This document shows positions 4,022-36,545 of a DNA stretch of 64,000 bases, piece by piece. Under the pieces are notes generated by a model. The model saw only the letters and a program-made list of their open reading frames with translations, made no database searches and was not told the origin of the DNA. How positions within the stretch are numbered: position 1 is the stretch's first letter; each line of letters starts with the position of its first letter. The stretch covers positions 73,753 to 137,752 of the forward strand of contig JADHVL010000001.1 in NCBI GenBank assembly GCA_016784025.1, written 5' to 3'. The position numbers were made by a program, and so were the translations under genes. This DNA comes from Fidelibacterota bacterium (GTDB lineage Bacteria; Fidelibacterota; UBA8477; JABMPR01).

Positions 4022-6943
4022 ATGAGAAGCATAAAAGCTTTCTTTCTGATCATAATCCTGATGACAAGTTGGGTATTTGCCGGCGTAACAGGTAAACTGG
4101 CAGGTGTCGTCATTAACCAGGAAACGAAAGAACCATTAATTGGTGCTTCCATTGTGGTCCCAACCACCTGGGTTGATGAATTTCAGGTGGAAATGCTCCA
4201 TCCTTTTGGGGCCGCAGCCAATGAAAAGGGCCAATATTTTATACTGAATCTTGAACCAGGCGATTATGACATGAAAGTCATGATGATGGGATACGCTACT
4301 GAGCTTAGAACCAGAGTTCGTGTAGATGCAGACCGTACAACCTGGGTGAATTTTGAGCTCAAACCTGAAGCCATTTTAGGAGAGGATGTAGTTGTTACCG
4401 CCTATCGGGCTGATGACATCCAAGTTGATCTTACCGCGACACGTCAAAATTATGCCATGTCTGAAATGGAAAACAATACAGCGATGTACGAAATTGACGA
4501 TGTAATAGCGTTACAGGCTGATGTTGTCGACGATCATTTTCGAGGGGGCCGTGAGAATGAGACCCTGTATCTGGTTGATGGCGGAACCATTGTAGACCCC
4601 ATGGAAAATGGTAAAGCCTACACACCTCTGGTAATCAGTATGGAACAGGTTCAAGTCGTCACGAGTGGATTTAGTGCTGAATATGGGAACACGCAGTCAG
4701 GCGTGGTGAACATGATACCAAAACAGGGTAAAAATAAGTGGCGTACGAATGTTCAGGTTGTTTATACCGCTCCACATGATTTGTATTGGGGTGGGAGCGT
4801 TTTCGATACCTCCAGGACTCCGTGGAACCTGTTTGCAAGTGGTCCCGATTTTTGGCTCACTTCAGTTACAGACGGTGAGAATCCCTATTTTCAAGAAACT
4901 GGTGGTGGCAAGTACAATGCACACACCTATGACGATACACTCAAGCAAGCCGCGCTGGCATATGCGCAATTCCGAAGTTTCTCCCGTCTGCTTGGTGGGA
5001 ACTATAATGATCTCTGGCAGGACATGAGAGTGAACTTTAGCAGCGGGGGTCCCATCACTGAGAATACCCGTATCTTTATGGCCCTGGGTAATCATTCAAA
5101 ACCCAATATCATGCCCTCCGAAGAACCGGATGTTCGACGCGATATCATGGTAAATCTTACCCACGATATAAGCAGTACCAACAAGCTGGTGATGGGTTAT
5201 GACTACAACTATAACTTTAGTAATACCATTGGTGTGAATAATTCGAGAGATCTCTTCTTCAGGGAAGAGGGCAACTCAAAAAGGATTCGGACCACCCAGA
5301 ATGTTCGTCTTCGCTGGGAACATGTTTTTTCTAAAGCTGCTTTTATGGATATAAATTTTCGGATCCTCTATAACCGTTCCTGGCAGCTCGCACCTATTCG
5401 TGATCCCTCTCAGCAAATACCACAATACGGTCCTGCCAATGCGATACCGTTCTTTTCACGATTAGGTCTCAATGGGATGTATAGTGATGAATTCGCCAAT
5501 TCCAGAAACCGCAATCAAAACATCACCTATTCTCTACTTGGACAGGTCTCCAATCAGATTACCAATTACAATCTGCTCAAGTTTGGCTTGCAGGTCTTTG
5601 CCTATGATATCAACAATTATAATGAAAATAATGTAACAAGTCAGACCAACTATGAGCTGAATGAATATAAAGTGAGACCGGTTGAAGGCGCACTTTACCT
5701 GGAAGACAAACTCGAGTTTGAGGGTATGATAGCCAATCTTGGTTTGAGATGGGATTTTTACGATTTTAATACGAGTTACTTCACGGATCGCTTCTCACCG
5801 ACACGCAATCCGGATTTTAATCCTGACCTACCCTACTTTGAGCAAACAGATTATTTGGACATAGAGAATGCCCTGCGTGAAGACACCAAGCCATTCTCTA
5901 GACTTCAACCCCGCCTGGGAATTGCTTTTCCCATTAATCTGGCGTCAGTAGTGCATATGAATTATGGTCAATTCGTCCAACGACCTGGCTTGAAGTATGT
6001 CTATGAACGTCGTATTGAAGAAACGGGTCGTGTAAACAGTCTGGGCAACCCTCGACTGCGTCCAGAGAAAACAAACTCTTATGACATTGGTGTCGTCCAG
6101 GGCTTTCCCTTTGGTATCAGGGTTGACCTGAGTCTCTATTACAAAGATGTAAAGGATCTCATCCAGGCTGTCACCTATATCGATGAAGAGACCAACGTCT
6201 ACCGCACCTATGACAATCGGGACTATGCCAATATCAAGGGCTTTCATGCCAGCATTGAAAAACGGAGTAAGCTTTTTACGGCAATTGTCCGCTATCGATA
6301 CCAAAAAGCAACGGGGAAATCAGCGACTCCTTTTGATGCACCTGTAACCTATCTGGAGCTGGACAGACTCTCCGGGCGAATAGATGTCGAATTACCCGAT
6401 CCAGAAGATATTCCTATGGACTATGAGCGTACACACCGTCTGGTTACCAGCTTTAATGTAAAAAGTCCCAAAAAATTCGGTCCTAAAATGTTTGGATCGC
6501 GACCGCTGGGTAGTTGGAACTTGAATATTCGTAACGACTGGATGACTGGCCGTCCCTACACTTTTGATCCTGAAATTGCGGGACAACGCTATAATCGCAG
6601 AACGCCAGATGAAAACAAGCTCCAGGCTCGTCTCCAGAAGACATTCCATATGAGAGCATACGAATACACGGTCTATTTCGAGGGTATGAATTTGCTGAAT
6701 GATAAGGTATTCAACTATTCAATATTCAGGGGGGATAGCGAGCGCAAATCTGATCTCCATGATTATGGCGTTGAAGGTGAATGGGAAAATATCTATGACG
6801 AAAATGGGGAATTGGTGGAGCAAATCTGGCATGATGGAGCCAGGGTTTATACCCTGAACGTGGATTACCCATATATCGAAGAAGCAGTCATATATAAGAA
6901 CAGCCCAGCCTATTACAGGATGGGTGTGAATATAAAGTTTTAG
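4022..6943 (+). CDS. TonB-dependent receptor-type outer-membrane barrel with N-terminal carboxypeptidase-regulatory-like domain (cassette 1, gene 1)
   Basis: 973 aa with a signal peptide. N-terminal GKLAGVVINQETKEPLIGASIVV...YFILNLEPGDYDMKVMMMGY (CarbopepD_reg-like). Plug-like LYLVDGG..VQVVTSGFSAEYGNTQSGVVNMIPKQG. Long barrel ending in aromatic ...YRMGVNIKF. RBS GTGAGG upstream. Confidence 0.85.
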   Translation: MRSIKAFFLIIILMTSWVFAGVTGKLAGVVINQETKEPLIGASIVVPTTWVDEFQVEMLHPFGAAANEKGQYFILNLEPGDYDMKVMMMGYATELRTRVRVDADRTTWVNFELKPEAILGEDVVVTAYRADDIQVDLTATRQNYAMSEMENNTAMYEIDDVIALQADVVDDHFRGGRENETLYLVDGGTIVDPMENGKAYTPLVISMEQVQVVTSGFSAEYGNTQSGVVNMIPKQGKNKWRTNVQVVYTAPHDLYWGGSVFDTSRTPWNLFASGPDFWLTSVTDGENPYFQETGGGKYNAHTYDDTLKQAALAYAQFRSFSRLLGGNYNDLWQDMRVNFSSGGPITENTRIFMALGNHSKPNIMPSEEPDVRRDIMVNLTHDISSTNKLVMGYDYNYNFSNTIGVNNSRDLFFREEGNSKRIRTTQNVRLRWEHVFSKAAFMDINFRILYNRSWQLAPIRDPSQQIPQYGPANAIPFFSRLGLNGMYSDEFANSRNRNQNITYSLLGQVSNQITNYNLLKFGLQVFAYDINNYNENNVTSQTNYELNEYKVRPVEGALYLEDKLEFEGMIANLGLRWDFYDFNTSYFTDRFSPTRNPDFNPDLPYFEQTDYLDIENALREDTKPFSRLQPRLGIAFPINLASVVHMNYGQFVQRPGLKYVYERRIEETGRVNSLGNPRLRPEKTNSYDIGVVQGFPFGIRVDLSLYYKDVKDLIQAVTYIDEETNVYRTYDNRDYANIKGFHASIEKRSKLFTAIVRYRYQKATGKSATPFDAPVTYLELDRLSGRIDVELPDPEDIPMDYERTHRLVTSFNVKSPKKFGPKMFGSRPLGSWNLNIRNDWMTGRPYTFDPEIAGQRYNRRTPDENKLQARLQKTFHMRAYEYTVYFEGMNLLNDKVFNYSIFRGDSERKSDLHDYGVEGEWENIYDENGELVEQIWHDGARVYTLNVDYPYIEEAVIYKNSPAYYRMGVNIKF

Positions 6944-6975
6944 CGCACCTTGTTGCTGAAAGGGCAAATAGAATT

Positions 6976-9339
6976 ATGGTGAAAATAGGAAGAACTGGGT
7001 TTGCGCTGATAATGATTCTTTCACTCATGGCAACATCGCTGTGGGCTCAAAGACGTGAATACAAGGTCATGCGCAGAGGCATGATGCGTGAATCACTCTA
7101 CAATAACGGAATTATCAGTACACCGTTTCATAATGATGGGATGGATATCGTGGATCACCCTCAGATGGAATGGCCCAAATATTCAAGTACGGTAGAGGGG
7201 ACCATTATTTATGATGGCCAACACAATACCATGGGTGGTGGTATACATATCTCAGGAAACATACATGACAAACCCTTTCAGGATGAACGTCACTTTTCCT
7301 TTTGTGGTCTTGTGGGAGGGGGCGGACCCGAGGAGACCATCGGTATCTGGAATTTCCCGGTAGAATTTCGTCGTATTGAAAATTATCCCATCCTGGCTGA
7401 TGGAAGTCTAAATCTGGAATATGATCCTGAAGAGGCAGAGGAAATCATTTACGCTAAATGGGCAACCAGTATGGGTGTCACAATCACACGGGTATCCAGA
7501 GCCTGGAGCTATCCTGACTATGACGATATGATTATCCATGAATACGAATTGGTGTTTGACGGAAATACCGATAGTGACCCTACTACTATTGAAGAAGTTG
7601 TCATCGAGCGCGGCTCTGGGGGAATAACCACACTCGATACCGTTCAAGTCTGGGAGGACTTTGTCGTATTCTTCGGTCAGAGCTGGGGTCCAAACATGTT
7701 TGCCTACCAGCGTCAACCTGAATATGGTGGGATATGGAATTGGAAACCGGGACTCATCAGCGATGGAAATCACCAGAGTTTTGACCATAAATTATGGACA
7801 CTTTTCAATTTTGATACTCAAACCAACGGTTCCTTAAACCGTAAGGCAAAACCTGAACCCAATCTGGATCTTTTTGAGGAATGGGCCAGAACCGGTAAAA
7901 ATGGTGGTGGGCTGCTAGCACCACAGGCAGTAGGTATGAGCATGCTGTACTACGACACAAAGCATCTCTCAGCAATCAATATTGCAACCGACACATCAGT
8001 CTATGACGGGGAAACCTCCTATGCCTGGAAAGCCAATGATCACGAACTGTTTCAGTTTCCAGATGAGCCGGATTCCAATGTATTCCGCATCAAGCAACCC
8101 TGGGAAATATACAAGAACAAAGGCTGGTTTGGCCTGAACAAGCTTTACGAAGGAGCTTCCAGTGAGACCGAGAAGCGAGGTAATCCTTTCGGTACAAGTT
8201 ATCTGGATGATCCACGAGTTGGTGAGACCTGGGTCGGTAGGGGAGCCTTCTCGTCTCAAAAGGCTAATGCCATGCCTCTCCAGGCCTTCGCATTTGGACC
8301 CTATACCATTCATCGCGGAGATACCGTTGAATTCAGTATGGCTCAAGTTGTGGGTTACGGAACCGATTCTCGTGAGATTATGGGAGGGGGATCCCATGAT
8401 CAAAGCGTCTTGTTTATGAAACCTGTTCACATTGATTCCTTTGATGTCATTCTTAAAAATGATGAGGGGAATGATGTACTCATGACCAGTCATTATATCT
8501 CTGATTACGGATACCCCGACTATGTCAATTCAGATGTGATCACAATTCAGGATGTATCACGCAAAGCCTATGAGATGTACACTGGAGATTCACTTGCACG
8601 AGTTGAAAGCTGGGGAACCGATGAATTCCGATATTGGCCTGAGAATAATGCAAGAGATGGAAAATATGTTGTTCAGGACATTCCCTGGCCTGCACCCGTG
8701 ATAGACGTTGCCAATACAGCCCTCCAGGGCGTGAGAGTTGCCTGGAATCGGGAGGTGGAGGATTTTCCGTATACAGTGAATGACCTTGGCGGATTCAATC
8801 TATATCGAGCCTATAATCCGCTTGGTCCCTGGAAATTGCTTGTCTCCAAGATAGTCGGAGATGTGAACTCAGATAACTCCTACGAATTCTTTGATGAAGA
8901 CACGACCTTGAAAATGGGTGAAGCTGTGTTTTACGCAGCGACAAGTTTTGATACTGAGGGCTTTGAATCTGGAAAATCCAATATCTTTCCTGATCCAGAT
9001 AATGCAGATGCACCGGCCTTCAGAAGAAGTCAGGGAGCAGTCGAGGAACTGGGTGATATTGTTGTGACACCCAATCCCTTCTTTGAAAAGTCTGGCTTCT
9101 CCGGAACTGGTGAAGATAATATGATTGGATTCTATGGATTGCCTGCAGTATGCACGATCAGGATCTATTCCTATTCTGGACAGCTGGTGGAAACACTGGA
9201 ACACGATTCTGATGCCTACAGTCATCAGTACTTTCAAGTAAGTCGAAACGATCAAATCATTGCAGCCGGTCTCTATTTCTTTTCAGTTTCAACCCCCGAC
9301 GGACAGACCACCGGCGGTAAATTTTTTATTATTAAGTGA
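6976..9339 (+). CDS. Orphan secreted protein with variant T9SS-like C-terminal domain (cassette 1, gene 2)
   Basis: 787 aa with a signal peptide (MILSLMATSLWAQ). I recognise no catalytic or binding domain. The C-terminus VVTPNPFFEKSGF...CTIRIYSYSGQLVETLEH...GLYFFSVSTPDGQTTGGKFFIIK resembles a CTD but deviates from the NYPNPFNP consensus. A paralogue lies at 33259..35538. Confidence 0.6.
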   Translation: MVKIGRTGFALIMILSLMATSLWAQRREYKVMRRGMMRESLYNNGIISTPFHNDGMDIVDHPQMEWPKYSSTVEGTIIYDGQHNTMGGGIHISGNIHDKPFQDERHFSFCGLVGGGGPEETIGIWNFPVEFRRIENYPILADGSLNLEYDPEEAEEIIYAKWATSMGVTITRVSRAWSYPDYDDMIIHEYELVFDGNTDSDPTTIEEVVIERGSGGITTLDTVQVWEDFVVFFGQSWGPNMFAYQRQPEYGGIWNWKPGLISDGNHQSFDHKLWTLFNFDTQTNGSLNRKAKPEPNLDLFEEWARTGKNGGGLLAPQAVGMSMLYYDTKHLSAINIATDTSVYDGETSYAWKANDHELFQFPDEPDSNVFRIKQPWEIYKNKGWFGLNKLYEGASSETEKRGNPFGTSYLDDPRVGETWVGRGAFSSQKANAMPLQAFAFGPYTIHRGDTVEFSMAQVVGYGTDSREIMGGGSHDQSVLFMKPVHIDSFDVILKNDEGNDVLMTSHYISDYGYPDYVNSDVITIQDVSRKAYEMYTGDSLARVESWGTDEFRYWPENNARDGKYVVQDIPWPAPVIDVANTALQGVRVAWNREVEDFPYTVNDLGGFNLYRAYNPLGPWKLLVSKIVGDVNSDNSYEFFDEDTTLKMGEAVFYAATSFDTEGFESGKSNIFPDPDNADAPAFRRSQGAVEELGDIVVTPNPFFEKSGFSGTGEDNMIGFYGLPAVCTIRIYSYSGQLVETLEHDSDAYSHQYFQVSRNDQIIAAGLYFFSVSTPDGQTTGGKFFIIK

Positions 9340-9351
9340 TGTGAGTGGAGT

Positions 9352-10419
9352 ATGAACATGAATAGAAAAATTGGCAGAACGAACCATGTCATGATCTGTC
9401 TGGCACTTTTCCTTTCCTCCCTGACAGCACAGGAGAAAGTGGGAACAACAGCATTTCAATTCCTGAAAGTCAATCCCACTGCCAGATCCGCGGCTATGGG
9501 TGATGCCACCTCATCGTTTGTTGATGGTGCATCCGCCATGTTTATCAATCCTGCAGGTCTAATGAATATTGACAAATTTGATATTTCAGCCTCTTATTTC
9601 AATTATTTCTTCGATGTAAAAACTTCAGCTTTTTCAGCAGCCTACAGCATCCCCAATTTTGGAACAGTTGGTGTGCTGGCTCAACTCACCGATTATGGTG
9701 AAATGAATGTTACTTCAGTTGAGGCTATGGGCTATCAAAATGGAGAGTTTAATCCAGGTTTTACCGGTGAGACATTCAATCCCGGACACCAGATCCTAGG
9801 TCTATCCTATGCCAATACACTTACAAACAAGTTTGCATTTGGTGTGACCGCGAAACACATCAAGGAAAATGCCGATTATTCCTGGAATGGCAGTGAGATG
9901 TCAGCTTCACTCATTGCCTTTGATACAGGACTGCAATACAGGACAGGTTATGAGTCTGTAAAAATTTCAATGGTCCTACGACATTTTGGTAAGGATGTAA
10001 GCTTTATAGAATATGAAGACACCCTGCGAATCTTTCATGATAGCACCTATACGGATGAAATCAGAACGGTAACCGGTAAACAATATCCCTTGCCCCAGAT
10101 TCTGGTTATGGGCATTTCAGGCTACATTTTTGGTCCAAAAGATGCGATTATCGCTACACCAGGCTCCAAATCAAGTCTACTATTCTCAGTGGATATGATG
10201 GCTCCCCGTGATTACGATCAGCAATTTAATTTTGGATTGGAATATGATTTTTCTAATCTTCTCTACTTACGGTCTGGCTACAAGCTGAACTACGATACAG
10301 AGAATTGGAGTCTTGGTTTTGGTCTCCATTATAAAGGTGTGCAGGTAGACTACTCGTTCAATAATTACGATTCATACCTTGGAACCATCAATCGATTTAC
10401 ACTTGGAATAGCCCTCTAA
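9352..10419 (+). CDS. PorV/PorQ-family outer-membrane beta-barrel (cassette 1, gene 3)
   Basis: 355 aa with a signal peptide. N-terminal GTTAFQFLKVNPTARSAAMGDA....ASAMFINPAGL matches the hallmark start of PorV/PorQ-family proteins. Alternating beta-strand pattern to the C-terminus. Confidence 0.7.
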   Translation: MNMNRKIGRTNHVMICLALFLSSLTAQEKVGTTAFQFLKVNPTARSAAMGDATSSFVDGASAMFINPAGLMNIDKFDISASYFNYFFDVKTSAFSAAYSIPNFGTVGVLAQLTDYGEMNVTSVEAMGYQNGEFNPGFTGETFNPGHQILGLSYANTLTNKFAFGVTAKHIKENADYSWNGSEMSASLIAFDTGLQYRTGYESVKISMVLRHFGKDVSFIEYEDTLRIFHDSTYTDEIRTVTGKQYPLPQILVMGISGYIFGPKDAIIATPGSKSSLLFSVDMMAPRDYDQQFNFGLEYDFSNLLYLRSGYKLNYDTENWSLGFGLHYKGVQVDYSFNNYDSYLGTINRFTLGIAL

Positions 10420-10438
10420 AGGTGCTCAGGATAATTTT

Positions 10439-11962
10439 ATGAAAGTACGTCATATACTTGTATCAATGGTTACGCTCTTAGCCCTACTTGTCCTTTCTGA
10501 CAGAGCGTTAGCACAGGGGAATGGGGCAGATCTTGGATTTCAGGGCCTGGGGCAAATCAGTCCCCAGAGCGTGAGAGGACTGGCTACTGGAAATGCATAT
10601 ACTGCCAGATCAGGTGATATTGAATCGATCTATTTTAATCCAGCTGGATTGAATGGAATCCAGGGATTTCAAGTCTCCTACTCTGCCAAAACCACCGAGA
10701 CAACCCTGTGGGAAAATAAAATGTGGGGAGATCAAGAATCTACACCCTTGCTTAGTATGATTATGGATTATCGTTTCGAAATTGATCCTGGACAATATGG
10801 CGTGACTGACGATTCACTCTGGTTGTTGATGGATATTGAGGATATAGGTATTCCTGAGCAAGGAGTTTATCATTACGAGCGGAGTGCTGCAAGTTGGATT
10901 GAAGAACGCTCAAAGCAGCTGCCCTTTAACTCAATCTCTGCTGTTTTACCAGTCACTCTATTCGATCAAGATTTTGTACTGGGTGGCTCTTATTCCAGTC
11001 AGTATAATGTGGATGATTATGATCGTAATGACAGTCATACCGATCCCTTCCTGGCCAACCGACCCTATATGCACTATAACTATGAAACGTCTGACGATAC
11101 TGCTCATGTTGTTTGGTCAAAATTCACCAGAAACCGTCAAGGTGTCATCAATTCAATGCGGTTTGCCCTGGGCTATAGTCTTGGGGAGGTCATTCAACTT
11201 GGTCTAGGGGTGAATAGTCTGTCAGGTGATACTGAGGATGAATTAATCCTCGATAAAATTGCATCCCTCGATTTATGGTCAAAAAGCTTTGTATTTACCC
11301 ACGATTCACTGGTGACCCGAACTTCTGGAACTTCAAGTTTTAGTGGTTTTAATCTGGATATGGGATTCATCTTTGATTTTTCCACAATAGATTTTGGACT
11401 GCATATCAAGCTACCCTATCGTCTGAATCGTGACTGGAGCTATACAAGGCAAATCACATCTCTTGATTCGATCTCATCAACACCTTCAAACGGTCAGGAT
11501 TTTGTGGACATTCCTGCCTCAGGTGCAGTTGGTATAAATATCCAAGCCACACAAGATTTGAGTATTGCCTTTGACATGGGCTTAATACCATACGAGTCAG
11601 CCACTTTTGAATATGCGGACTTTGGATATGGGGATATTGTCTCTGACTCGACTCAGTACCAATGGGTGGATGTATTGAGTTATCAAGTAGGTTTGACATA
11701 TGAGTTTTCAGACTTCTTGACACTAATGGGTGGGTATCGTTCAACGCCACTTCCTTATGTACCCTGGGGAGTTGCAGACAAATCTGAAGGTCCACGATCC
11801 ATGGGTCTGACCACAGGGATATCCATCTCTGTTATGAATATTCAGCTTGATGTTGCTTATGAATACCAGGAGTTAAAGTACTTAGAACCAGCTTATGCCT
11901 ACCTTAATTTCGTTACTCAGCTGAGGAACACATTCCTTGTTGGTTTGACATATGGGTTTTGA
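10439..11962 (+). CDS. FadL/PorV-like outer-membrane beta-barrel (cassette 1, gene 4)
   Basis: 507 aa with a signal peptide ending ALAQG. N-terminal RGLATGNAYTA..GDIESIYFNPAGL motif, as in FadL/UPF0164-type barrels. C-terminal beta-signal ...FLVGLTYGF. Confidence 0.6.
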   Translation: MKVRHILVSMVTLLALLVLSDRALAQGNGADLGFQGLGQISPQSVRGLATGNAYTARSGDIESIYFNPAGLNGIQGFQVSYSAKTTETTLWENKMWGDQESTPLLSMIMDYRFEIDPGQYGVTDDSLWLLMDIEDIGIPEQGVYHYERSAASWIEERSKQLPFNSISAVLPVTLFDQDFVLGGSYSSQYNVDDYDRNDSHTDPFLANRPYMHYNYETSDDTAHVVWSKFTRNRQGVINSMRFALGYSLGEVIQLGLGVNSLSGDTEDELILDKIASLDLWSKSFVFTHDSLVTRTSGTSSFSGFNLDMGFIFDFSTIDFGLHIKLPYRLNRDWSYTRQITSLDSISSTPSNGQDFVDIPASGAVGINIQATQDLSIAFDMGLIPYESATFEYADFGYGDIVSDSTQYQWVDVLSYQVGLTYEFSDFLTLMGGYRSTPLPYVPWGVADKSEGPRSMGLTTGISISVMNIQLDVAYEYQELKYLEPAYAYLNFVTQLRNTFLVGLTYGF

Positions 11963-11998: not shown

Positions 11999-13909
11999 GT
12001 GTTTAAACGACTATTTATACTCATATCGATCAGCCTGACGTTGGGATTTTCCCAATGGGCTGAAGTTTCAGTGTCCAACCAGGGTGAAATTATTGAAGTC
12101 TGCACCCTCAATGATGGATTGGCATTTGCAGTTGTCCACAGTAACAGTGGTACAGAGGTCATCAAAACCACTGATTATGGTCAAAGTTGGATAGCAACAT
12201 CTAACCCCATTGATTGGATGAATGACGCCAAGACGATTGCCTTTAAAAATGAAAATGTGGGACTAGTTGGTGGTACAAATGGGATGTACATTTGGACTCT
12301 AGACGGTGGAACCAACTGGCAACAAAGTCAATTCGGGAATCAGGATGATATTACCTCAGCTCGCTGGATTGATACATCAGAATTGATTATCGCAACGGAA
12401 AACGGTTATGTCTGGTCAACCGACTATTTTGGAGCTGGTTGGGCTGTTAGTACGAGTCTAGAAGCAGCGTTGAATGAAATCAGTGCAAGAGCGAAGGCTT
12501 ATTCGCTAGAGATCATCGATCCGAACAACTGGCTTATCTGCGGCAAGAAAGGTGCAGTGCTTAAAACCAATGATCATGGGATGACCTGGACAGAATGTAA
12601 CCATTCCGCAGGAAAACCAATATTTTATGATATCTCAGCCCTAGATCTTGACAATTGGGTAGTTGTTGGGAATAATGGAAAGATGCTAAAAACTACGAAC
12701 GGGGGTACCAGTTTTTCCCTCATATATCCTGATCAGTCTCAATCGGTCACCTATGAAGCAGTGAGTTATTATGATCTTGATCATGTGATGGTTGGTGGTC
12801 AAGATGACTCAAATTCAGGAATCATTCAATCCTCTTCAGATGGTGGTCTCAACTGGACAGATGAACCTTATACACCGGGTAGTGAAAACACGATCATGAT
12901 TCATGATATCCACATGTACCGACACGACCATGCGATTGCTGTGGGCGACTTCAATCATAATAATCAATCAGCAGATTCTCGCATTTATCTCTATGGTGAA
13001 GCCCTGTTTTATGGTGACATTAATGGAGACAGCCAACTGGATGTGACAGACCTGACTCGGATGATAGAGCTGATTACCTATACAGGCGATCCCGGGCTGG
13101 AAACTGAATTGCGGGTTATGGATATGAATCGAGATGATTCAAATGATATTCTTGATGTGGTAATGCTTATTGAAAGCATTCTTGAGACACAAACGATGGC
13201 CAAGCAGACTGTTTTAGGCACCACCTTTTCTTCACAATCAATAACTCAGATTCATACCATTCTGGAATGGCAAAATGTCCCTGTTCACATCTCATATAAT
13301 GGTATGATATCAGGATTTCAAACAGATGTCAGTTATGATCCAACAGTTTTTGAAATCGGAATACCTGAATTAGCTCCAGGTAACGAGTCTGCCTCAATTT
13401 ATCATCGGACAGGAACTGGAAGTATGCGTGTACTGGGTGTGAATATTGGGGGTGGTCAGATTGATGTTGAATCGGGACTTCTGATGCAAATTCCCATACA
13501 GGCTATTGATGATTCCTATACGGGGCCAATAGAATTTAGTATTGATAATCTGATCCTGGCAGGACCAGGGGGGACTGAAATCCAGGCCGATATACTTTTG
13601 GGTGTTGACGATTCTAAGCCAGTGAATCCCCAGGTAAACAGATTACATCAAAACTTCCCCAATCCTTTTAATCCAAGCACCAGTATCCAATTTGCGATTT
13701 CACATGCTGGACCTGTTTCTCTGGTGGTATTTGACACGCAGGGGAAGCAAGTCGCAACCCTCAAGAATGGTCACCTTTCTACGGGTCATCATCAGGTTAG
13801 TTGGGATGGACTGAACAATAGGGGATATTCTGTAGATACGGGTATCTATTTTTGCCAGTTGAATTCATCAACTGGCTTAAAGACCATCAAAATGTTGCTG
13901 GTAAGATAG
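11999..13909 (+). CDS. BNR/Asp-box (Ycf48-like) beta-propeller protein with dockerin, cohesin-like module and T9SS CTD
   Basis: 636 aa, GTG start, signal peptide. Repeated SxDxGxTW-type blades (TTDYGQSW, TLDGGTNW, TNDHGMTW, TTNGGTSF, SSDGGLNW). Two EF-hand-like dockerin segments (GDINGDSQLDVTDL.., MDMNRDDSNDILDV..). Cohesin-like ISGFQTDVSYDPTVFEI region. CTD NFPNPFNPSTSIQF. Confidence 0.7.
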   Translation: MFKRLFILISISLTLGFSQWAEVSVSNQGEIIEVCTLNDGLAFAVVHSNSGTEVIKTTDYGQSWIATSNPIDWMNDAKTIAFKNENVGLVGGTNGMYIWTLDGGTNWQQSQFGNQDDITSARWIDTSELIIATENGYVWSTDYFGAGWAVSTSLEAALNEISARAKAYSLEIIDPNNWLICGKKGAVLKTNDHGMTWTECNHSAGKPIFYDISALDLDNWVVVGNNGKMLKTTNGGTSFSLIYPDQSQSVTYEAVSYYDLDHVMVGGQDDSNSGIIQSSSDGGLNWTDEPYTPGSENTIMIHDIHMYRHDHAIAVGDFNHNNQSADSRIYLYGEALFYGDINGDSQLDVTDLTRMIELITYTGDPGLETELRVMDMNRDDSNDILDVVMLIESILETQTMAKQTVLGTTFSSQSITQIHTILEWQNVPVHISYNGMISGFQTDVSYDPTVFEIGIPELAPGNESASIYHRTGTGSMRVLGVNIGGGQIDVESGLLMQIPIQAIDDSYTGPIEFSIDNLILAGPGGTEIQADILLGVDDSKPVNPQVNRLHQNFPNPFNPSTSIQFAISHAGPVSLVVFDTQGKQVATLKNGHLSTGHHQVSWDGLNNRGYSVDTGIYFCQLNSSTGLKTIKMLLVR

Positions 13910-14002
13910 CAACCTCAGGATACTGCTCTGAATTGATCTGAATCGAGCTGGATTCATTGACATATCGTCATGAAGTTTGACTTGCTTTTTTATGAAATAT
14001 AG

Positions 14003-14017
14003 GTATACTAAATATAC
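14003..14017. promoter_or_regulatory. Palindrome GTATA-CTAAA-TATAC, candidate operator/promoter element
   Basis: Perfect inverted repeat 114 nt upstream of the ATG at 14131. The 16-nt core GTATACTAAATATACA is identical to the site at 17713. Confidence 0.5.
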
Positions 14018-14130
14018 ACAAGATTGAAAAGTTAATGGATTTCACATATTACTATTTTTTGAATAGCAAAAGTGTCTAGAGCTGACAACTCGAGGTCAAA
14101 TATTTATTCAACATTATAAGGAGAAGGTGT

Positions 14131-15705
14131 ATGCTTAAAAAGTTACTCGTCTTAACAATCCTAAGCCTCTCATTTGGTTTTGCACAATGGGTGGAAGTTG
14201 TGATTGAACCGCTGGGAAAGATGAATCAAATTCAAGTATTGGATGATGGTCTGGCTTATGTGGCTCTGGGTGGAACTGGCCATAGTGGTGCTCTGAAAAC
14301 TACTGATTATGGAGCAACCTGGGATACACTAAATTATTATGCTGGCGAAGGCGCATCTTCCTTTTTGACGGTTGCTTTTAATAGTGCAGGTGTCGGATTT
14401 GTAGCTGGTCCAATCGGTTACATGGAAGTCAGTCTAGATGGTGGAGAAACATGGTCATCAGATATCAGCCCTGGCGGTCCTAATAAAATTAATAAAGTTC
14501 AGTGGGTCACTGAGACCAGATTTGTAGCCGCTGATTTTAAGGGTATTCTGTATTATACTGAAGATAATGGAGCGACCTGGACCGAGGATTATGCTCTCAA
14601 TACTGCATTGCTTGGTGTCCATGGCAGTGCCAATATTACAGCCCTTGAAATCGTGGATGAAAACAATTGGCTGGCCTGTGGTAAAAAAGGAGCGATCCTG
14701 AAATCCACAGACGGTGGTGTTTCCTGGACATCAGTAACGCATACTGTCGGGACGATCTTCTTCCAGGATATAACCGCAGTTGATGCAAATAACTGGTATG
14801 TAGTGAGTAACCAGGGTAAAGTTTTGTTTACCAGTGATGGCGGTCCAAATATTGCTGATACAGGTGCCAATCCGGAAGCCACAATTGACTGGTACTGTAT
14901 CGATAATTATGGCGCCAATGATATTATTCTTGGTGGAAAGTATATTGATGGTAACGGGGTTATCATGTCCTCAGCAGATGGTGGAACAACCTGGGTTGCT
15001 GAAACATATGCTGGAGCAGATTTATACAATTATAGTGCCCGTGATATCCACATGTTCAGTGCGACTGACGCTATTGTAGTCGGTGATGTTGGAACGACTG
15101 ATGGTTATGTTTATATCCTTGGTAATCCAGGTTCTGGAACTGGAAACGTTGCACCAACAGCCAACGCTGGTGATGATCAGATTGTTGATGAAGCAGGACC
15201 GGATCTTGGAGCAACTATCACACTTGACGGCTCTGGATCTTCAGATTCAGACGGAACCATCACAGCCTGGGATTGGTCTTGGGAAGGTGGCACAGCCTCA
15301 GGTGAAACTGCAGACGTTGAGCTAGCTGCAGGAACCTACACGGTAACACTCACAGTAACAGATGATGGTGGAGAAACAGCTACTGATGAAGTGAGTATTA
15401 CGGTTAACGTAGTTGTTTCTGTTGACGGTCGAATGAGTCCAATGACATTTGCTCTACATGCAAACTATCCTAACCCCTTCAATCCTTCCACGCAGATTAA
15501 TTATGATTTGACCGAAAGTGGTATAGTTGATTTGACCATTTACGATGTAAATGGTATCGAGGTTAGTAAGCTGGTACAGGGTTATCAAAGCGCTGGATCA
15601 CATTCATTAACCTTCAGTGCGAACAGCCTACCATCTGGTGTCTATGTTGCCAGATTAACTTCAGGTATGAATACTATGACCAGGAAAATGATCCTGATGA
15701 AATAA
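14131..15705 (+). CDS. BNR/Asp-box beta-propeller protein with PKD domain and T9SS CTD
   Basis: 524 aa, AAGGAG RBS, signal peptide. Blades KTTDYGATW, SLDGGETW, TEDNGATW, STDGGVSW, SADGGTTW. PKD-like ITLDGSGSSDSDGTITAWDWSW...TYTVTLTVTDDGG. CTD NYPNPFNPSTQINY. Confidence 0.75.
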   Translation: MLKKLLVLTILSLSFGFAQWVEVVIEPLGKMNQIQVLDDGLAYVALGGTGHSGALKTTDYGATWDTLNYYAGEGASSFLTVAFNSAGVGFVAGPIGYMEVSLDGGETWSSDISPGGPNKINKVQWVTETRFVAADFKGILYYTEDNGATWTEDYALNTALLGVHGSANITALEIVDENNWLACGKKGAILKSTDGGVSWTSVTHTVGTIFFQDITAVDANNWYVVSNQGKVLFTSDGGPNIADTGANPEATIDWYCIDNYGANDIILGGKYIDGNGVIMSSADGGTTWVAETYAGADLYNYSARDIHMFSATDAIVVGDVGTTDGYVYILGNPGSGTGNVAPTANAGDDQIVDEAGPDLGATITLDGSGSSDSDGTITAWDWSWEGGTASGETADVELAAGTYTVTLTVTDDGGETATDEVSITVNVVVSVDGRMSPMTFALHANYPNPFNPSTQINYDLTESGIVDLTIYDVNGIEVSKLVQGYQSAGSHSLTFSANSLPSGVYVARLTSGMNTMTRKMILMK

Positions 15706-15831
15706 TATGATCTATTGTTCCAAAGTTTGATGGTGAGGGGATAGAGTCTTGTGGGCTTTATCCCCTCATTTTGTTTAAGCAAGAAGATAATATTACTCAA
15801 AACAGATATAAATCGAGACAAGGGAGGAAAT

Positions 15832-17400
15832 ATGCTTAGACGATTAATGGTATCAACACTCTTACTGCTAACATTTGTGTTTGCCCAATGGACAGAAACT
15901 GAAATTGTGCCAGATGGGCGGTTGCAGGAGATAAGTATCCTGGATGATGGAACCGCCTACATTGCCATCGGTAATCAGGCAGATACACCCTATGGTGGTG
16001 TTTTGAAATCCACTGATTGGGGCGCAACCTGGGGCGAACTGGATTGTCCGGCAGCAACGACTCCAACCGGGATGCTTTCTGTTGATTTCTGGGATGCGAA
16101 TCTTGGAATTGTCACCGGCAAAGATCATATCGTCATGATAACTCGTGATAGTGGTGCCAGTTGGGAAACACCTGCGTTTGAGTCAGTAAATTCATTCTGG
16201 GTCGCAAAATGGTTGAGCGCTACCACAGTCGTTACAGTTGGGGATAGTGGAAAAGTCTTTATCAGCGAAGATGCAGGAGTGAATTGGACTACACAGCTCG
16301 GGCTTAGAGACATATGCCAGACAGTACATTCAAAAGCAGGCTGTTTCGATATGGCCTTTATTGATGAAAACAACTGGGTAAGTGTCGGCAAAAAAGGAGC
16401 TATGGCAAAAACTACAGATGCCGGTGCTACCTGGACTTTGCTTGCTCACACACTTGGGACACCTGTTTTTCAGGATATCGATTTCATCGACGCAGATAAC
16501 TGGATGATAGTTGGAACAAATGGATCTGCCTTAAAAACGACCGATGCAGGTGCCAGTTTCACAGTCATGTCCATCAACGCTGCTGCAAGATTTGAGGCTC
16601 TGGATTATCTGGATGCTAACAATGCCATGATAGGTGGACATGATGGGGGAGCTCCTACTGGCATTATTTATCAAACGACTGATGGTGGTGCCACCTGGAC
16701 AGATGCGAGCATACCAGCCACTACCGGTAATTCGGTTCGCGCCATCCACATGTTTGATGCAGCTACAGTGATTGCCCTGGGTGACTTAAACCCGGGTGGA
16801 CGAATATTTACTCTGGGCGTTCCAGGTTCTGGAACTGGAAATATTGCTCCAACAGCCAGTGCTGGTGTAGACCAGACTGTTGATGAAGCCGGACCAGGAC
16901 TTGGCGCCACAATCACTCTTGATGGTTCTGGATCATCGGATTCTGATGGTACAATCACAGCCTGGGATTGGTCCTGGGATGGTGGTACAGCTTCTGGTGA
17001 AACAGCTGATGTTGAATTTGCAGCGGGAACATATGCTGTGACACTCACAGTTACAGATGATGGTGGTGAAACAGCTACCGATGAAGTGATTATAGTAATC
17101 AACGTGGTCGTATCTGTTGATGGCCGAATGAGCCCACAGGCATTTGCACTGCATGCAAATTATCCTAACCCCTTCAATCCGACCACTCAGATTAGCTATG
17201 ATTTGGCTGAGAGTGGCTTGGTTGATTTGACGATTTACGATGTAAATGGCATCGAGGTTAGCAAGCTGGTACAGGGTTATAAAAGCGCAGGACATCACAC
17301 ATTGACTTTTTCAGCAGATAACCTGCCCTCTGGGATTTATGTTGCCAGATTATCTTCAGGTATTAAAAGTATGACCAGGAAAATGATTCTGATGAAGTAA
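15832..17400 (+). CDS. BNR/Asp-box beta-propeller protein with PKD domain and T9SS CTD (tandem paralogue)
   Basis: The ORF track begins at GTG 15751. I prefer ATG 15832, which has GGGAGG 6 nt upstream and gives a normal signal peptide (MLRRLMVSTLLLLTFVFAQW). Same architecture as 14131..15705. Confidence 0.75.
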   Translation: MLRRLMVSTLLLLTFVFAQWTETEIVPDGRLQEISILDDGTAYIAIGNQADTPYGGVLKSTDWGATWGELDCPAATTPTGMLSVDFWDANLGIVTGKDHIVMITRDSGASWETPAFESVNSFWVAKWLSATTVVTVGDSGKVFISEDAGVNWTTQLGLRDICQTVHSKAGCFDMAFIDENNWVSVGKKGAMAKTTDAGATWTLLAHTLGTPVFQDIDFIDADNWMIVGTNGSALKTTDAGASFTVMSINAAARFEALDYLDANNAMIGGHDGGAPTGIIYQTTDGGATWTDASIPATTGNSVRAIHMFDAATVIALGDLNPGGRIFTLGVPGSGTGNIAPTASAGVDQTVDEAGPGLGATITLDGSGSSDSDGTITAWDWSWDGGTASGETADVEFAAGTYAVTLTVTDDGGETATDEVIIVINVVVSVDGRMSPQAFALHANYPNPFNPTTQISYDLAESGLVDLTIYDVNGIEVSKLVQGYKSAGHHTLTFSADNLPSGIYVARLSSGIKSMTRKMILMK

Positions 17401-17427
17401 AATTAGAGTCATTCATTTTGACTTATC

Positions 17428-17466
17428 AGAGGCTGATTGCTGCAGAGTGGTCAGCCTCTTTTTGTT
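17428..17466 (+). terminator. Rho-independent terminator after the BNR-PKD gene
   Basis: AGAGGCTGA (17428-17436) pairs with TCAGCCTCT (17451-17459) and is followed by TTTTGTT, 28 nt after the stop at 17400. Confidence 0.7.
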
Positions 17467-17483
17467 CAGGGAGGAAAAGCCCC

Positions 17484-17660
17484 GGACATTGAGCATGCCT
17501 GCACTGAGCGATGTCGAAGTGTCGAAATGTCTTGGACCTTGGCATGATACCCTCCGACTTCGAGAGCCTCAGTCTCCGAAATCCCCTGGACATTGAGCTC
17601 GTCGAAATGTCCTTTGCCCTGGTGATTTCCTCTCCGACTTCGACAGGCTCAGCCTCCGAA
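17484..17660. repeat. Array of small hairpin repeats with conserved TGAGC(T/C)(T/C)GTCGAA core, in alternating orientation
   Basis: Units: 17484-17531 (GGACATT..ATGTC, expanded loop), 17556-17574 (reverse core TTCGAGAGCCTCA), 17588-17612 (GGACATT GAGCTCGTCGA AATGTCC, 7-bp stem), 17638-17652 (reverse core CTTCGACAGGCTCAG). Confidence 0.65.
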
Positions 17661-17712
17661 ACATTCCTGACATTACCTACGCAGTTATACCTTGCGATGA
17701 TTGAAAAATATA

Positions 17713-17727
17713 GTATACTAAATATAC
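17713..17727. promoter_or_regulatory. Palindrome GTATA-CTAAA-TATAC, candidate operator/promoter element
   Basis: Perfect inverted repeat 99 nt upstream of the ATG at 17826, immediately downstream of the hairpin-repeat array. Confidence 0.5.
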
Positions 17728-17825
17728 ATAATAGAGATTTTGCTTCTATGACAACAATGAGAATTATGAGTAAATCTAAAAAAATCATAAAGACAATAAT
17801 AATAGTATGATAGGATGATATTATC

Positions 17826-19193
17826 ATGTTGAATCAACTACATGATTTATGGAAACTGATCATACTTGCCTCAATAACGATTCCAATCTGCGCTCAGTGG
17901 AATGAAGTCTCTGTCCCAGAGGGTAGTATCAAGCTGAATGAGATTTCTATTCTGGATGACGGATTAGCTTTCATTGCATTGGGGGGAGCTCAAAATGGTG
18001 TCACCGAGGGTGGTGTTCTGAAAACATTGAATTATGGTGAGAGCTGGCAGCTGATAGCCAGTCCTGCCAGTGACTTCAGAAAATCCATGGTAACGGTTTC
18101 CTTCAAGAATGAACTGACCGGCTTTGTTGGTGGATCCGTAGAATTATTTTTGCGTACCATGAACGGTGGAGCAAGCTGGACCTATGATGCCTTTGATACA
18201 CCCGAATCCATTAGACGTGTCAGATGGTTAAATGACACCACTGTGGTAGTAATGGACAAGGCAGGAACACTTTGTTTTAGTTCCGATCTTGGGGAAAGCT
18301 GGGATATCGATACAACTCTGGCAGCTGCTGTTTCCAATTTCCATCAACGGGCCAATACCATGGCATTTGAAATTATCGATGAGTACAATTGGATTGCAGC
18401 CGGTAAGAAGGGTGCCTTGTTAAAAACGTCCAATGGGGGACAGAGTTGGTCAAACCTTTATCATCTGGCCGGAACCCCCGTCTTTCAAGACATAGATGCC
18501 CTTGATGTAAACAACTGGATCGTGGTAGGCACGAGTGGTTCCGCGCTCATGACCCAGGATGGAGGCGATCATTTCACCGAGCTTAATCTTGATCCTAACT
18601 ACACTGCTAAATTTCAGGCAGTTAGCTATGCTGATTCAGACAATATTATGATCGGCGGTATTACCGTATCCAGTACAGGATACGGTGTCATCAAGTCCAC
18701 TGCCGATGGAGGAATGACCTGGGAAGATGAAAATTTCGGTGGCAGTGATATCTATGGATTTGCCATCAGGGATCTTCATATGTACGAGCCAGGTCTGGCC
18801 ATTGCTATCGGAGATGCAAATCCAGGTGGTAAAGTCTACCTCCTCGGAGAGCATATTTATTATGGCGATGTTAATGCAGATAGCCTTTTGAATGTCCTTG
18901 ACTTGCAACGTCTCATGGAAATCGTGACCTTTGCAGGTGATGCTGCAAATGAAGACGAACTTCGCATTATTGATATGAATAGAGATTTCTCATATGATGT
19001 CCTGGATGCTGTGTTGTTGATTGAAGCAATTATGGCATTCAATGAGTCTACTGATAGCACATCACGATCAATTGGTTCAGTTGGACGTAGCGATAGTGAT
19101 TTGAACAGTGATGATGGGATTTCACTGGATCAGACAAAAGGTCACAGACTGAAAAGAATATTTGCTAACCACATGAGAAAAACCAGACTTTAA
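17826..19193 (+). CDS. BNR/Asp-box beta-propeller protein with dockerin, lacking T9SS CTD
   Basis: 455 aa. Blades LNYGESW, TMNGGASW, SSDLGESW, TSNGGQSW, TQDGGDHF, TADGGMTW. Dockerin segments GDVNADSLLNVLDL.. and IDMNRDFSYDVLDA... Ends in a Ser/Asp-rich tail with no NYPNPFNP signature. Confidence 0.65.
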   Translation: MLNQLHDLWKLIILASITIPICAQWNEVSVPEGSIKLNEISILDDGLAFIALGGAQNGVTEGGVLKTLNYGESWQLIASPASDFRKSMVTVSFKNELTGFVGGSVELFLRTMNGGASWTYDAFDTPESIRRVRWLNDTTVVVMDKAGTLCFSSDLGESWDIDTTLAAAVSNFHQRANTMAFEIIDEYNWIAAGKKGALLKTSNGGQSWSNLYHLAGTPVFQDIDALDVNNWIVVGTSGSALMTQDGGDHFTELNLDPNYTAKFQAVSYADSDNIMIGGITVSSTGYGVIKSTADGGMTWEDENFGGSDIYGFAIRDLHMYEPGLAIAIGDANPGGKVYLLGEHIYYGDVNADSLLNVLDLQRLMEIVTFAGDAANEDELRIIDMNRDFSYDVLDAVLLIEAIMAFNESTDSTSRSIGSVGRSDSDLNSDDGISLDQTKGHRLKRIFANHMRKTRL

Positions 19194-33249: not shown

Positions 33250-33258
33250 GGGACTCCT

Positions 33259-35538: not shown

Positions 35539-35558
35539 ACGCGACCCAGGGAGAAAGA

Positions 35559-36533
35559 ATGATGAAATTGAATCAAATCAAATCAATAGTCATGCCCTTG
35601 TGTCTGTTGTTAGCGTTTTCAACAATTGATGCTCAGACAACAAAAGAGGGGACAACCGCATTTCAATTCTTGAAGGTAAAACCAGATGCCCGGGCAAATG
35701 GAATGGGAGAGGCCTTCACGGCAGTGGCTGATAATGCTGATGGTGTCTATTACAACCCTGCTGGGCTAACCGACGCAGGCAAATATGAATTGTCTATGTC
35801 TATGTACAACTATTTTGCCGATGTCCGGAACATGGGAGGTGTGGCTCTAGTGGGAACTCGGTTAGGCACCTTTGCCATACAGTATCAATACAATGATATT
35901 GGTCAAATACTACATACAACCAATGTAACCAGCCTTGCGGATTACCAGGCACTCTCAAGTTCTCAGGATTATTTTAGTCCCAATCATCTTATGCTGGGTC
36001 TTACTTATGCCAGAGCCGTGACTGATAAATTCAGCTTTGGTATCACTACCAAGTTTGTACAGGAAGACTTGATCTATTCTAAAGAGGATCAAATCCTTTT
36101 TGATGGTGGTGTGCTCTATCGTTCAGGTTGGAGAACATTACGTACCAGTGCGGTCGTTCGTCATTTTGGAGATGACATCGTATTTGAAGAGAAAGGCTTT
36201 TCAGCACCTCAGGTCCTCATTCTCGGTTTTGGTGTTGAATGCTTTGGTCCTGAAGGTGGCTTGATCGGGACAAATTCGTTTCAGAGGCTTACACTTGCTG
36301 CAGATCTTCTGGCACCGCGTGATTATGATCAACAGTATAACATCGGTGCAGAGTGGGCTTTGAAAGAAAGGCTGTTCCTGCGCGGAGGATATAAAATTAA
36401 TTATATCACTGAGGGACTCAGCCTGGGAGCTGGAGTATCCCTGGGAAATTTTAAATTCGATTATGCATATAATGATTATGATGACTTCCTGCAATATGTT
36501 CAGCGTTTTAGTCTGAGCTATGTGATGAGATAG
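35559..36533 (+). CDS. PorV/PorQ-family outer-membrane beta-barrel (cassette 2, gene 3)
   Basis: 324 aa. GTTAFQFLKVKPDARANGMGEAFTAVADNADGVYYNPAGL is the hallmark N-terminus. Paralogue of 9352..10419. Confidence 0.7.
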   Translation: MMKLNQIKSIVMPLCLLLAFSTIDAQTTKEGTTAFQFLKVKPDARANGMGEAFTAVADNADGVYYNPAGLTDAGKYELSMSMYNYFADVRNMGGVALVGTRLGTFAIQYQYNDIGQILHTTNVTSLADYQALSSSQDYFSPNHLMLGLTYARAVTDKFSFGITTKFVQEDLIYSKEDQILFDGGVLYRSGWRTLRTSAVVRHFGDDIVFEEKGFSAPQVLILGFGVECFGPEGGLIGTNSFQRLTLAADLLAPRDYDQQYNIGAEWALKERLFLRGGYKINYITEGLSLGAGVSLGNFKFDYAYNDYDDFLQYVQRFSLSYVMR

Positions 36534-36545
36534 ACTGGATATAAG

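Follow-up and report, generated by a model that had tools for sequence, protein, structure and literature searches.

A Tandem Array of Four Ycf48-Like Propeller Genes Beside a TonB Cassette in a Marinimicrobia Fucoidan-Type Locus: Candidate Accessory Binding Proteins

Introduction

Fucoidan is among the most recalcitrant algal polymers and is relevant to marine carbon storage. The window considered here, a 64,000-nucleotide stretch of contig C16 in a 3.5-Mb metagenome-assembled genome (MAG G000, 86% complete) of an uncultured oceanic bacterium of the Marinimicrobia/SAR406, corresponds to a fucoidan-type locus. It contains four GH29 fucosidases, three sulfatases (in the scanned set), GH141-like beta-helix proteins, a gene of the L-rhamnose-mutarotase family, a CBM4_9 protein and a sugar ABC transporter, together with two cassettes (4022-11962 and 30343-38063) that each encode a TonB receptor, its partner, a PorV-like and a FadL-like protein. 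After the first cassette come four genes, A to D, whose products share an N-terminal beta-propeller of the BNR/Ycf48 type and differ in their tails (Table 1). This raises the question of what such propellers do in a locus of this kind, and hence bears on the surface capture of fucoidan by SusD-less bacteria such as Marinimicrobia.

A first-pass annotation, made from the letters of the window, had described four paralogues lying directly after an outer-membrane cassette of a fucoidan-type locus, and had proposed that they are either non-catalytic glycan binders or an unrecognised enzyme family. The description agrees with the coordinates, the strand, the Pfam and NCBIfam domains, the gene content of the locus and the 36-bp gap that separates A from the cassette. 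As for function, it can be proposed, with a confidence slightly better than even, that the array encodes non-catalytic, surface-displayed accessory binding proteins of the Ycf48 fold that serve the TonB uptake cassette next to them. A sister species, "Candidatus Neomarinimicrobiota bacterium SI053_bin15" (G013), has these four genes as well, in an identical order.

Fold and Family of the Propellers

In the Pfam scan, PSII_BNR (PF14870) exceeds its gathering score of 27 bits in all four proteins, which are 32-39% identical to one another overall. Six Asp-box-like motifs are counted in A, C and D and five in B, close to the "six or so" SxDxGxTW-type blades of the first-pass annotation. The propeller of C was modelled by AlphaFold2 from an 18-row alignment; a single-sequence model of D was of low confidence (pLDDT 31) and the alignment-based model of C was used instead. 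This model (pLDDT 88.6, pTM 0.87) has seven four-stranded blades, closed by an N-terminal strand. Compared with the PDB by Foldseek, its best 12 chains are all Ycf48/HCF136 (E about 1e-15, TM 0.72-0.80, 16-17% identity). The next tier comprises halves of GH74 enzymes (E about 1e-10 to 1e-9), the dispase autolysis-inducing protein (DAIP) and sortilin Vps10, with no sialidase among the top 50 matches. A sequence search of the PDB (phmmer) gives the same picture, the propeller retrieving only Ycf48 (E 7e-10 to 2e-8) and the tail retrieving collagenase PKD domains. As modelled, the domain is a single seven-bladed Ycf48-like Asp-box propeller, of a superfamily that is already known. The single-propeller proteins among these fold matches are binding proteins.

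Ycf48/HCF136 (PDB 2xbg, 5oj3, 5ojr) is thereby the best structural match and the best PDB sequence match, and shares with the array proteins the single seven-bladed Asp-box propeller and its closure by an N-terminal strand. Ycf48 itself is non-enzymatic, its mode of action being to bind and hold another protein or a peptide (PMC8038367; PMC8909930). The array proteins differ from it in being about 17% identical, in carrying type IX secretion system (T9SS), dockerin or PKD tails, in being encoded in an outer-membrane uptake locus and in having a host without D1/D2. Orthology to Ycf48 was considered and rejected, the PRK13684 equivalog model of NCBIfam scoring 43-64 bits against a cut-off of 326. 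Moreover, no Photo_RC gene (PF00124; D1/D2) is found in the 86%-complete genome, whereas a Synechococcus control is positive. The arginine patch conserved in Ycf48 reportedly binds the C-terminus of D1, according to work by Yu and colleagues in PNAS in 2018. That the array proteins have this patch in common with Ycf48 is unlikely, because no arginine is invariant over the four paralogues of both species.

Assignment to known glycoside hydrolases fails as well. The GH74 xyloglucanases (PDB 2cn3, 6p2o, 5fkq) are also built of Asp-box seven-bladed propellers, but they need two of them to form the catalytic cleft, to which each contributes one catalytic Asp. Each array protein has one, the remainder being dockerin, cohesin, PKD or C-terminal sorting domain (CTD). 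At the sequence level, no GH74 chain appears at E<=1 in the phmmer search of the PDB. GH33 sialidases and BNR_2, which are marked by six blades, a RIP/FRIP motif and an Arg triad, are discarded on account of seven blades instead of six, the absence of a RIP/FRIP motif and the absence of a PF13088 match; the motif search covered all four proteins, and the lack of a sialidase-type motif noted in the first-pass annotation is thereby upheld. There remains the F510_1955 family glycosylhydrolase model of NCBIfam (NF045728), matched at 33-45 bits, below its cut-off of 175. Since this name traces to the in-silico annotation of a protein without known function (PMC3948429), such matches carry no weight. 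The array is accordingly placed neither in a characterised GH family nor in a housekeeping group of Ycf48 orthologues.

Conservation of the Propeller Surfaces

Conservation was read from eight sequences, the four paralogues in each of the two species, with the propeller faces assigned by DSSP strand order so that the top face carries the D-to-A (and B-to-C) loops. Most invariant residues are scaffold Gly, Trp and Asp of the blades. On the predicted top-face turns, the only invariant polar residues are K187/K188 (in GKKGA, blade 4) and D318 (in GD, blade 7), about three blades apart; no arginine and, on these turns, no acidic pair is invariant. Identity in the D-to-A loops amounts to 68% between orthologues and to 21% between paralogues. 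The corresponding values are 79 and 40% for the strands, and 79 and 50% for the Asp-box loops of the bottom face. From this alignment, the four propellers appear to share no catalytic constellation. A predicted top face that is kept within each orthologue pair and diverges between paralogues suggests diversified binding surfaces, not a common active site.

These data bear directly on the view that the array is an unrecognised family of fucoidan enzymes (hydrolases, lyases or esterases), with an active site on one face or in a GH74-like cleft formed by dimerization. The locus is packed with fucoidan enzymes, GH74 xyloglucanases are the next-best structural relatives behind Ycf48, GKKGA and GD are invariant, and the slot that follows related cassettes sometimes holds PL6-like lyases; the weak sub-threshold F510_1955 matches would point the same way. 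Nevertheless, the label of that family is an in-silico one, and each protein has one propeller and too little space for another. The invariant polar residues lie on blades 4 and 7 without an acidic pair, and the top-face loops differ among the paralogues. Neither GH74 nor sialidases are retrieved by sequence from the PDB, and the characterised single propellers of the Ycf48-like or DAIP type are all binding proteins. An enzymatic role is therefore considered improbable. A non-catalytic binder is favored because of the single propeller, the three invariant top-face polar residues on different blades and the paralogue-specific loops.

Position of the Array and of Its Relatives Beside TonB Cassettes

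A begins 36 bp past the stop codon of the last barrel gene of the cassette, with no predicted terminator in the junction, and D ends 25 bp upstream of the mutarotase gene. In homologous cassettes of the genus (about 30% identity), the same slot is occupied by T9SS-anchored beta-helix/DUF5123/DUF4957 or PL6-like proteins. This suggests that the slot is reserved for proteins which come into contact with the substrate at the cell surface. On the other side of the cassette, the window holds two further T9SS-CTD proteins (16-1380 and 1362-3824; 454 and 820 residues), in which the CTD is the sole Pfam domain.

The propeller subfamily is narrowly distributed. In this genome its members are the four array genes only, and when 30 genomes from the order and 151 from the phylum are compared, G000 and G013 alone have the array. 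A scan of metagenome and genome collections with the subfamily profile adds three metagenome contigs carrying array genes, all from the sister species. When 1.84 billion representative proteins were searched with a profile, single full-length matches were confined to the subfamily itself, and the remaining roughly 76,000 hits were multi-propeller proteins scored blade by blade. The nearest outside relatives (25-33% identity, E to 1e-49) are CTD-bearing double propellers of 700-900 residues that come from Ignavibacteria, Calditrichia and Bacteroidota and are annotated as "YCF48-related" or "T9SS type A sorting domain protein". They align to the array propellers in shifted blade registers. Single-propeller forms also exist elsewhere, in a peptidase context, as indicated by a Bacteroidota MAG (L027, 10565-11575). 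There, a 336-residue single PSII_BNR propeller without CTD adjoins a 799-residue BNR protein with CTD and two M1 peptidases with CTDs. The single-propeller subfamily and its four-fold expansion in a fucoidan locus are new.

The uncharacterised double propellers share with the array proteins the blade pattern, the CTD, an occasional PKD or dockerin domain and, often, a TonB receptor nearby. They differ in having at least two propellers (700-2100 residues), in lying outside fucoidan loci and in not forming a four-gene array. Among 42 distant loci encoding BNR proteins with CTD, many on contigs too short for a decision, the propeller stands by a TonB-receptor cassette in 12 under a strict definition (same-strand receptor within about 6 kb) and in 14 if DUF4876 genes at contig edges are included. 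Several of these loci are orthologous, which leaves about nine independent cases. As a background, TonB adjacency is seen for 4 of the 91 CTD open reading frames (ORFs) of this genome. The TonB-adjacent relatives belong to three phyla, with examples from Calditrichia (L026, 25-bp gap), from Ignavibacteria (L028, 14-bp gap, propellers on both sides) and from a relative within the genus, where a propeller lies 31 bp from a PorV-type cassette (L034). Apart from these examples, 27 Marinimicrobia loci of the set include 11 TonB-adjacent ones, belonging to at least six genera and three families. The gap between propeller and cassette is often 14-42 bp, and the propeller comes after, sometimes before, the receptor cassette. 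In the literature searched, no description was found of T9SS propellers of the Ycf48 type adjoining TonB genes, nor anything tying Ycf48 to polysaccharide utilization, BNR propellers to fucoidan or Marinimicrobia to dockerins. The published ddb locus for DNA uptake has no propeller component. That T9SS propellers of this type recur next to TonB cassettes is new.

The order TonB receptor, DUF4876, DUF6850 and Ycf48-like double propeller with CTD was observed in Calditrichia, Ignavibacteria and several Marinimicrobia genera (Table 1), and a 650-residue Fer4_5 protein adjoins the cassettes of L026 and L028. The cassette next to the array differs from these in consisting of TonB-dependent receptor (TBDR), partner, PorV-like and FadL-like genes. 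The DUF4876 protein is the predicted lid of non-SusC TonB transporters (bioRxiv 10.1101/2023.03.17.533168), and when iron is limiting in P. gingivalis and B. thetaiotaomicron, TBDR-DUF4876 operons rank with the most strongly induced genes (PMC10434189).

Alternatively, the four proteins may be general adhesins or particle- or cell-attachment proteins, or generic cohesin-dockerin cargo, which reached the locus by chance insertion and have no specific role in fucoidan use. With the array in two of the 151 genomes of the phylum, linkage to fucoidan counts as one event, and the majority of the distant relatives occur in unrelated contexts, although relatives do repeatedly adjoin TonB cassettes. 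The strong terminators after B and C mean that co-regulation with the locus is not required; against this stand the 36-bp cassette junction without predicted terminator and the 25 bp between D and the mutarotase gene. The tails are generic display modules, common to peptidases and lectin-like proteins. The gene order, for its part, has been retained under purifying selection since the split of the two species (dS about 0.8-2.6). On the whole, chance insertion is regarded as rather unlikely. If the proteins were ordinary adhesins, the array would hardly be more than a neat case of shuffled modules.

Display Modules and Secretion

A, B and C end with a T9SS type-A CTD (TIGR04183, cut-off 23 bits), and a gene for the translocon component SprA is present in the genome (SprA_N 126.7 bits). 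PKD_4 is found in B and C (Pfam, E 3e-12). Dockerin_1 (PF00404) is the model of type-I dockerins, with their duplicated Ca-binding F-hand segment. In D its match is borderline, scoring 21.0 bits with hmmscan and 26.1 bits when the genome is scanned in six frames, and the NCBIfam scan finds no T9SS CTD; past the dockerin follows a 53-residue tail, Ser/Asp-rich and then basic, that is conserved in the sister species. A lipoprotein nature of D is judged unlikely, the cysteine of its signal peptide being absent from the sister orthologue.

The tails of B and C are 83-93% identical (79-88% at the DNA level), whereas identity between their propellers is only 20-53%. The sister species has B and C tails that resemble each other less than those of the window do, and its C orthologue (L004, 10001-11839; 612 residues) has two PKD domains where the C of the window has one. 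The PKD domain and CTD of C are nearer to the tail of B than to that of its own orthologue, which argues for exchange or conversion of the tail since the species split. Likewise, the 299-residue tail of A, composed of dockerin, middle module and CTD, is 43% identical from end to end with that of an otherwise unrelated protein encoded on contig C21. This kind of tail occurs in two sequence types, one represented by A and the C21 protein, the other by proteins of contigs C28 and C8 (Table 1). Such swapping of tails as cassettes is new.

The middle module of A had been called cohesin-like in the first-pass annotation. On its own it scores 15.8-19.1 bits with Pfam Cohesin (PF00963), below the cut-off of 24.1; it has no PDB match, and a search of 5.8 billion proteins returned its orthologue only. 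A profile built from nine copies of the module in the genome is more telling. Its top 17 PDB matches are all cohesins (E 1.8e-5 to 0.05), and it aligns over nearly the full length with cohesin 2vn5. Pfam Cohesin is matched by seven of the nine copies, and another module in the C28 protein exceeds the Pfam cut-off, at 32.5 bits. By these profile comparisons, the module of A appears to be a real, divergent cohesin, and the earlier name proves apt.

The genome scan yields 19 dockerin ORFs. In 14 of them the dockerin is the last domain and no CTD follows, another four have the tail of dockerin, cohesin and CTD, and D is the remaining one. The CTD-less cargo includes S8 and C25 peptidases, an M14 peptidase, ConA-like lectin domains, a GH130/GH32-like protein, a beta-helix protein and a PGA_cap-CBM4_9-PKD protein. 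D resembles this class in lacking a CTD, but has its conserved 53-residue tail. The arrangement recalls Candidatus Stygibacter (Cloacimonadota), for which a cellulosome-like system of dockerin-bearing S8/C25 peptidases and of cohesin proteins with T9SS CTD was described in silico (PMC8542988); the idea of a T9SS-linked cohesin-dockerin system therefore has a precedent. Dockerin-terminated S8 and C25 peptidases and glycan-active proteins occur in the present genome too. Unlike in Stygibacter, cohesins here are single and divergent, placed in a tail, or reside in a lipoprotein or in a two-cohesin CTD protein, with no giant scaffoldin, and the cargo includes propellers. The lipoprotein (C9, 122407-122895) is predicted as such and consists, in its 162 residues, of a single cohesin-like module; the CTD protein (C10, 15388-16731; 447 residues) has two cohesin-like modules and a T9SS CTD. 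Both may serve the 14 CTD-less dockerin proteins as minimal scaffoldins. With four secretin ORFs in the genome, that cargo might take a route resembling type II secretion.

In another reading, the propellers act in the periplasm as Ycf48-like assembly chaperones that help to fold or insert the outer-membrane barrels of the cassette. Ycf48 assists the assembly of a membrane complex, D has no CTD, and a proteobacterial Ycf48-like BNR protein is co-fit with outer-membrane DUF1302/DUF1329 proteins and a resistance-nodulation-division (RND) exporter (bioRxiv 10.1101/072470). However, CTDs above cut-off in A, B and C, together with SprA, predict that these proteins reach the cell surface; the dockerin, cohesin and PKD modules serve display outside the cell; and the chaperone of one cassette is not expected to exist as four diversified paralogues. 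A periplasmic chaperone role is for these reasons deemed highly improbable.

Proposed Role of the Array

The preferred reading, accessory binding at the cell surface, can be formulated as follows. Each protein would take the Sec route, with signal peptidase I cleaving it ahead of an invariant Gln. A, B and C would then cross the outer membrane and be anchored via the T9SS, through their CTDs, and D would be held by its dockerin on a cohesin, either that of A or another cohesin module of the genome. The PKD or dockerin-cohesin segments would serve as stalks and connectors. The top face of the propeller, with its D-to-A and B-to-C loops, would be the working surface and would act in concert with the adjacent transporter. 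Since this face is kept in each orthologue pair and diverges among paralogues, each copy should hold a different ligand.

Two kinds of ligand can be envisaged. The propellers may capture features of a heterogeneous fucoidan in the manner of SusE/F or of surface glycan-binding proteins (SGBPs); this is a tentative idea, slightly preferred over the second. By analogy with the binding mode of Ycf48 itself, the ligands may instead be protein partners of the uptake or display complex, which is a little more doubtful still. SusE and SusF of Bacteroidota polysaccharide utilisation loci are encoded directly past the transporter genes, are non-catalytic surface proteins and often exist as several diverged copies in one locus, a role here proposed for the array. 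For the array, only the position after the transporter genes is analogous. SusE/SusF are, in addition, lipid-anchored tandem lipoproteins of Ig-like and CBM domains, whereas the array proteins are propellers with a T9SS CTD or a dockerin. Of the two possibilities left by the first-pass annotation, non-catalytic binding has thus gained from the single propeller and the divergent top loops. The word "glycan" has lost ground, in view of the acidic propellers and of the DUF4876-type cassettes of the relatives, which are not specifically glycan loci.

Several points weigh against the proposed role. The propellers are strongly acidic (pI 4.1-4.4), which disfavors a simple electrostatic binding of polyanionic sulfated fucan. 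The cassettes of the relatives, of the DUF4876 type that is iron-regulated in Bacteroidota, argue for a family-wide link to transporters, not to glycans, and some two in three of the distant relatives lack a TonB receptor in their vicinity. With the array confined to two sister species, its linkage to a fucoidan locus amounts to a single evolutionary event. Lacking a CTD, D has no evident route across the outer membrane, and the four secretin ORFs prove nothing in this respect. Finally, the faces were assigned from DSSP strand order, not from the coordinates of the model, and the RNA evidence presented below consists of contigs from runs whose RNA label is partly guessed.

More speculatively, Ycf48-fold propellers could form a widespread class of T9SS-exported accessory proteins of TonB transporters in SusD-less phyla belonging to the FCB group, short for Fibrobacteres-Chlorobi-Bacteroidetes (Marinimicrobia, Calditrichota, Ignavibacteria), encoded at the cassette edge. 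The array would then be its single-propeller version, reached by reduction in this lineage, expanded to four specificities for fucoidan capture and connected to a T9SS-anchored cohesin-dockerin network, with D riding on the cohesin of A. Put in this full form, the scheme is possible but doubtful. If such a capture or organising layer is real, a function would be at hand for a very large group of unannotated T9SS proteins known as "photosystem II assembly factor-like", the superfamily counting more than 76,000 hits in the profile search. It would also mean that the Ycf48 fold has been repeatedly recruited as a partner of membrane complexes beyond photosynthesis, and would make available four natural binding scaffolds with distinct faces.

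Gene Structures, Selection and Transcription

Features of the array and of the loci compared with it are collected in Table 1. The start of C is likely at ATG 15832, since the hairpin after B overlaps the alternative GTG at 15751. The first-pass annotation had chosen the same start with a length of 523 residues; the start is retained, and the length becomes 522 residues plus the stop codon.

Table 1. Coordinates of the array, of its domains and neighbors, and of related features on other contigs and loci.
Feature	Coordinates	Strand	Residues	Description
Upstream outer-membrane cassette	4022..11962	+		TonB-dependent receptor (973 aa), partner (787 aa), PorV-like barrel (355 aa), FadL-like barrel (507 aa)
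Gene A	11999..13909	+	636	Signal peptide, seven-bladed propeller, dockerin, probable cohesin (divergent), T9SS CTD
A, propeller	12053..13003	+	19-335	PSII_BNR 38.1 bits; six Asp-box-like motifs; alignment with modelled C
A, type-I dockerin	13010..13183	+	338-395	Dockerin_1 31.2 bits, cut-off 22.9; 35.9 bits in genome scan
A, probable divergent cohesin module	13277..13633	+	about 427-545	Nine-copy profile matches PDB cohesins
A, T9SS type-A CTD	13655..13909	+		TIGR04183 36.8 bits
Gene B	14131..15705	+	524	Signal peptide, propeller, PKD, CTD
B, propeller		+	19-335	PSII_BNR 46.2 bits
B, PKD	15145..15405	+	339-425
B, CTD	15466..15705	+	446-524	TIGR04183 50.7 bits
Terminator-like hairpin after B	15732..15770	+		18-bp stem plus T-run
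Gene C	15832..17400	+	522	Signal peptide, propeller, PKD, CTD
C, propeller		+	19-333	Modelled; PSII_BNR 55.6 bits
C, PKD	16840..17097	+	337-422
C, CTD	17161..17400	+	444-522	TIGR04183 42.8 bits
Terminator-like hairpin after C	17428..17459	+		14-bp stem plus T-run
Gene D	17826..19193	+	455	Signal peptide, propeller, dockerin, 53-aa tail, no CTD
D, propeller	17895..18857	+	24-344	PSII_BNR 54.2 bits
D, dockerin	18861..19031	+	346-402	Dockerin_1, borderline
Protein with dockerin-cohesin-CTD tail of about 300 aa	C21:7286-12697		1803	Otherwise unrelated protein
Protein with dockerin-cohesin-CTD tail of about 300 aa	C28:69987-73211		1074	LVIVD propeller
Protein with dockerin-cohesin-CTD tail of about 300 aa	C8:12683-15040		785
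DUF4876-type order	L026 2462-10214			Propeller sometimes first in loci of this order
DUF4876-type order	L028 8001-18178
DUF4876-type order	L069 365-8273
DUF4876-type order	L076 3144-10953
DUF4876-type order	L078 2380-10658

The array is not an assembly artefact, as metagenome runs of at least six studies contain exactly this sequence and the sister species has the same gene order. Orthologues of the two species are 68-84% identical, with dN/dS values of 0.09-0.20 over propellers and tails (0.12-0.14 for A and 0.09-0.10 for B). The D pair, of the same architecture and with tails 72% identical, has a dN/dS of 0.20. To judge from these ratios, all four genes are under purifying selection.

Transcription of the four genes is supported, short of proof, by RNA-labelled contigs. 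Runs labelled as metatranscriptomes contain identical contigs covering all four genes, and one rRNA-depleted RNA-seq run contains a 188-nt piece of B. In run X22, the depth of the RNA-labelled contig dips at 17280-17943, around the spacer between C and D.

This 425-bp spacer may contain a promoter or regulator region for D. It has a direct repeat of about 80 nt (17521-17594 and 17601-17674, 72% identical) and, within 17474-17723, also a 21-nt repeat and a palindrome at 17708-17723. Contigs of run X23 diverge from the window at two places, one in the tail of A (around 13649/13680) and one between C and D (17655), the unlike stretches being 53-212 letters long; these breaks may correspond to strain-level structural variants at module boundaries.

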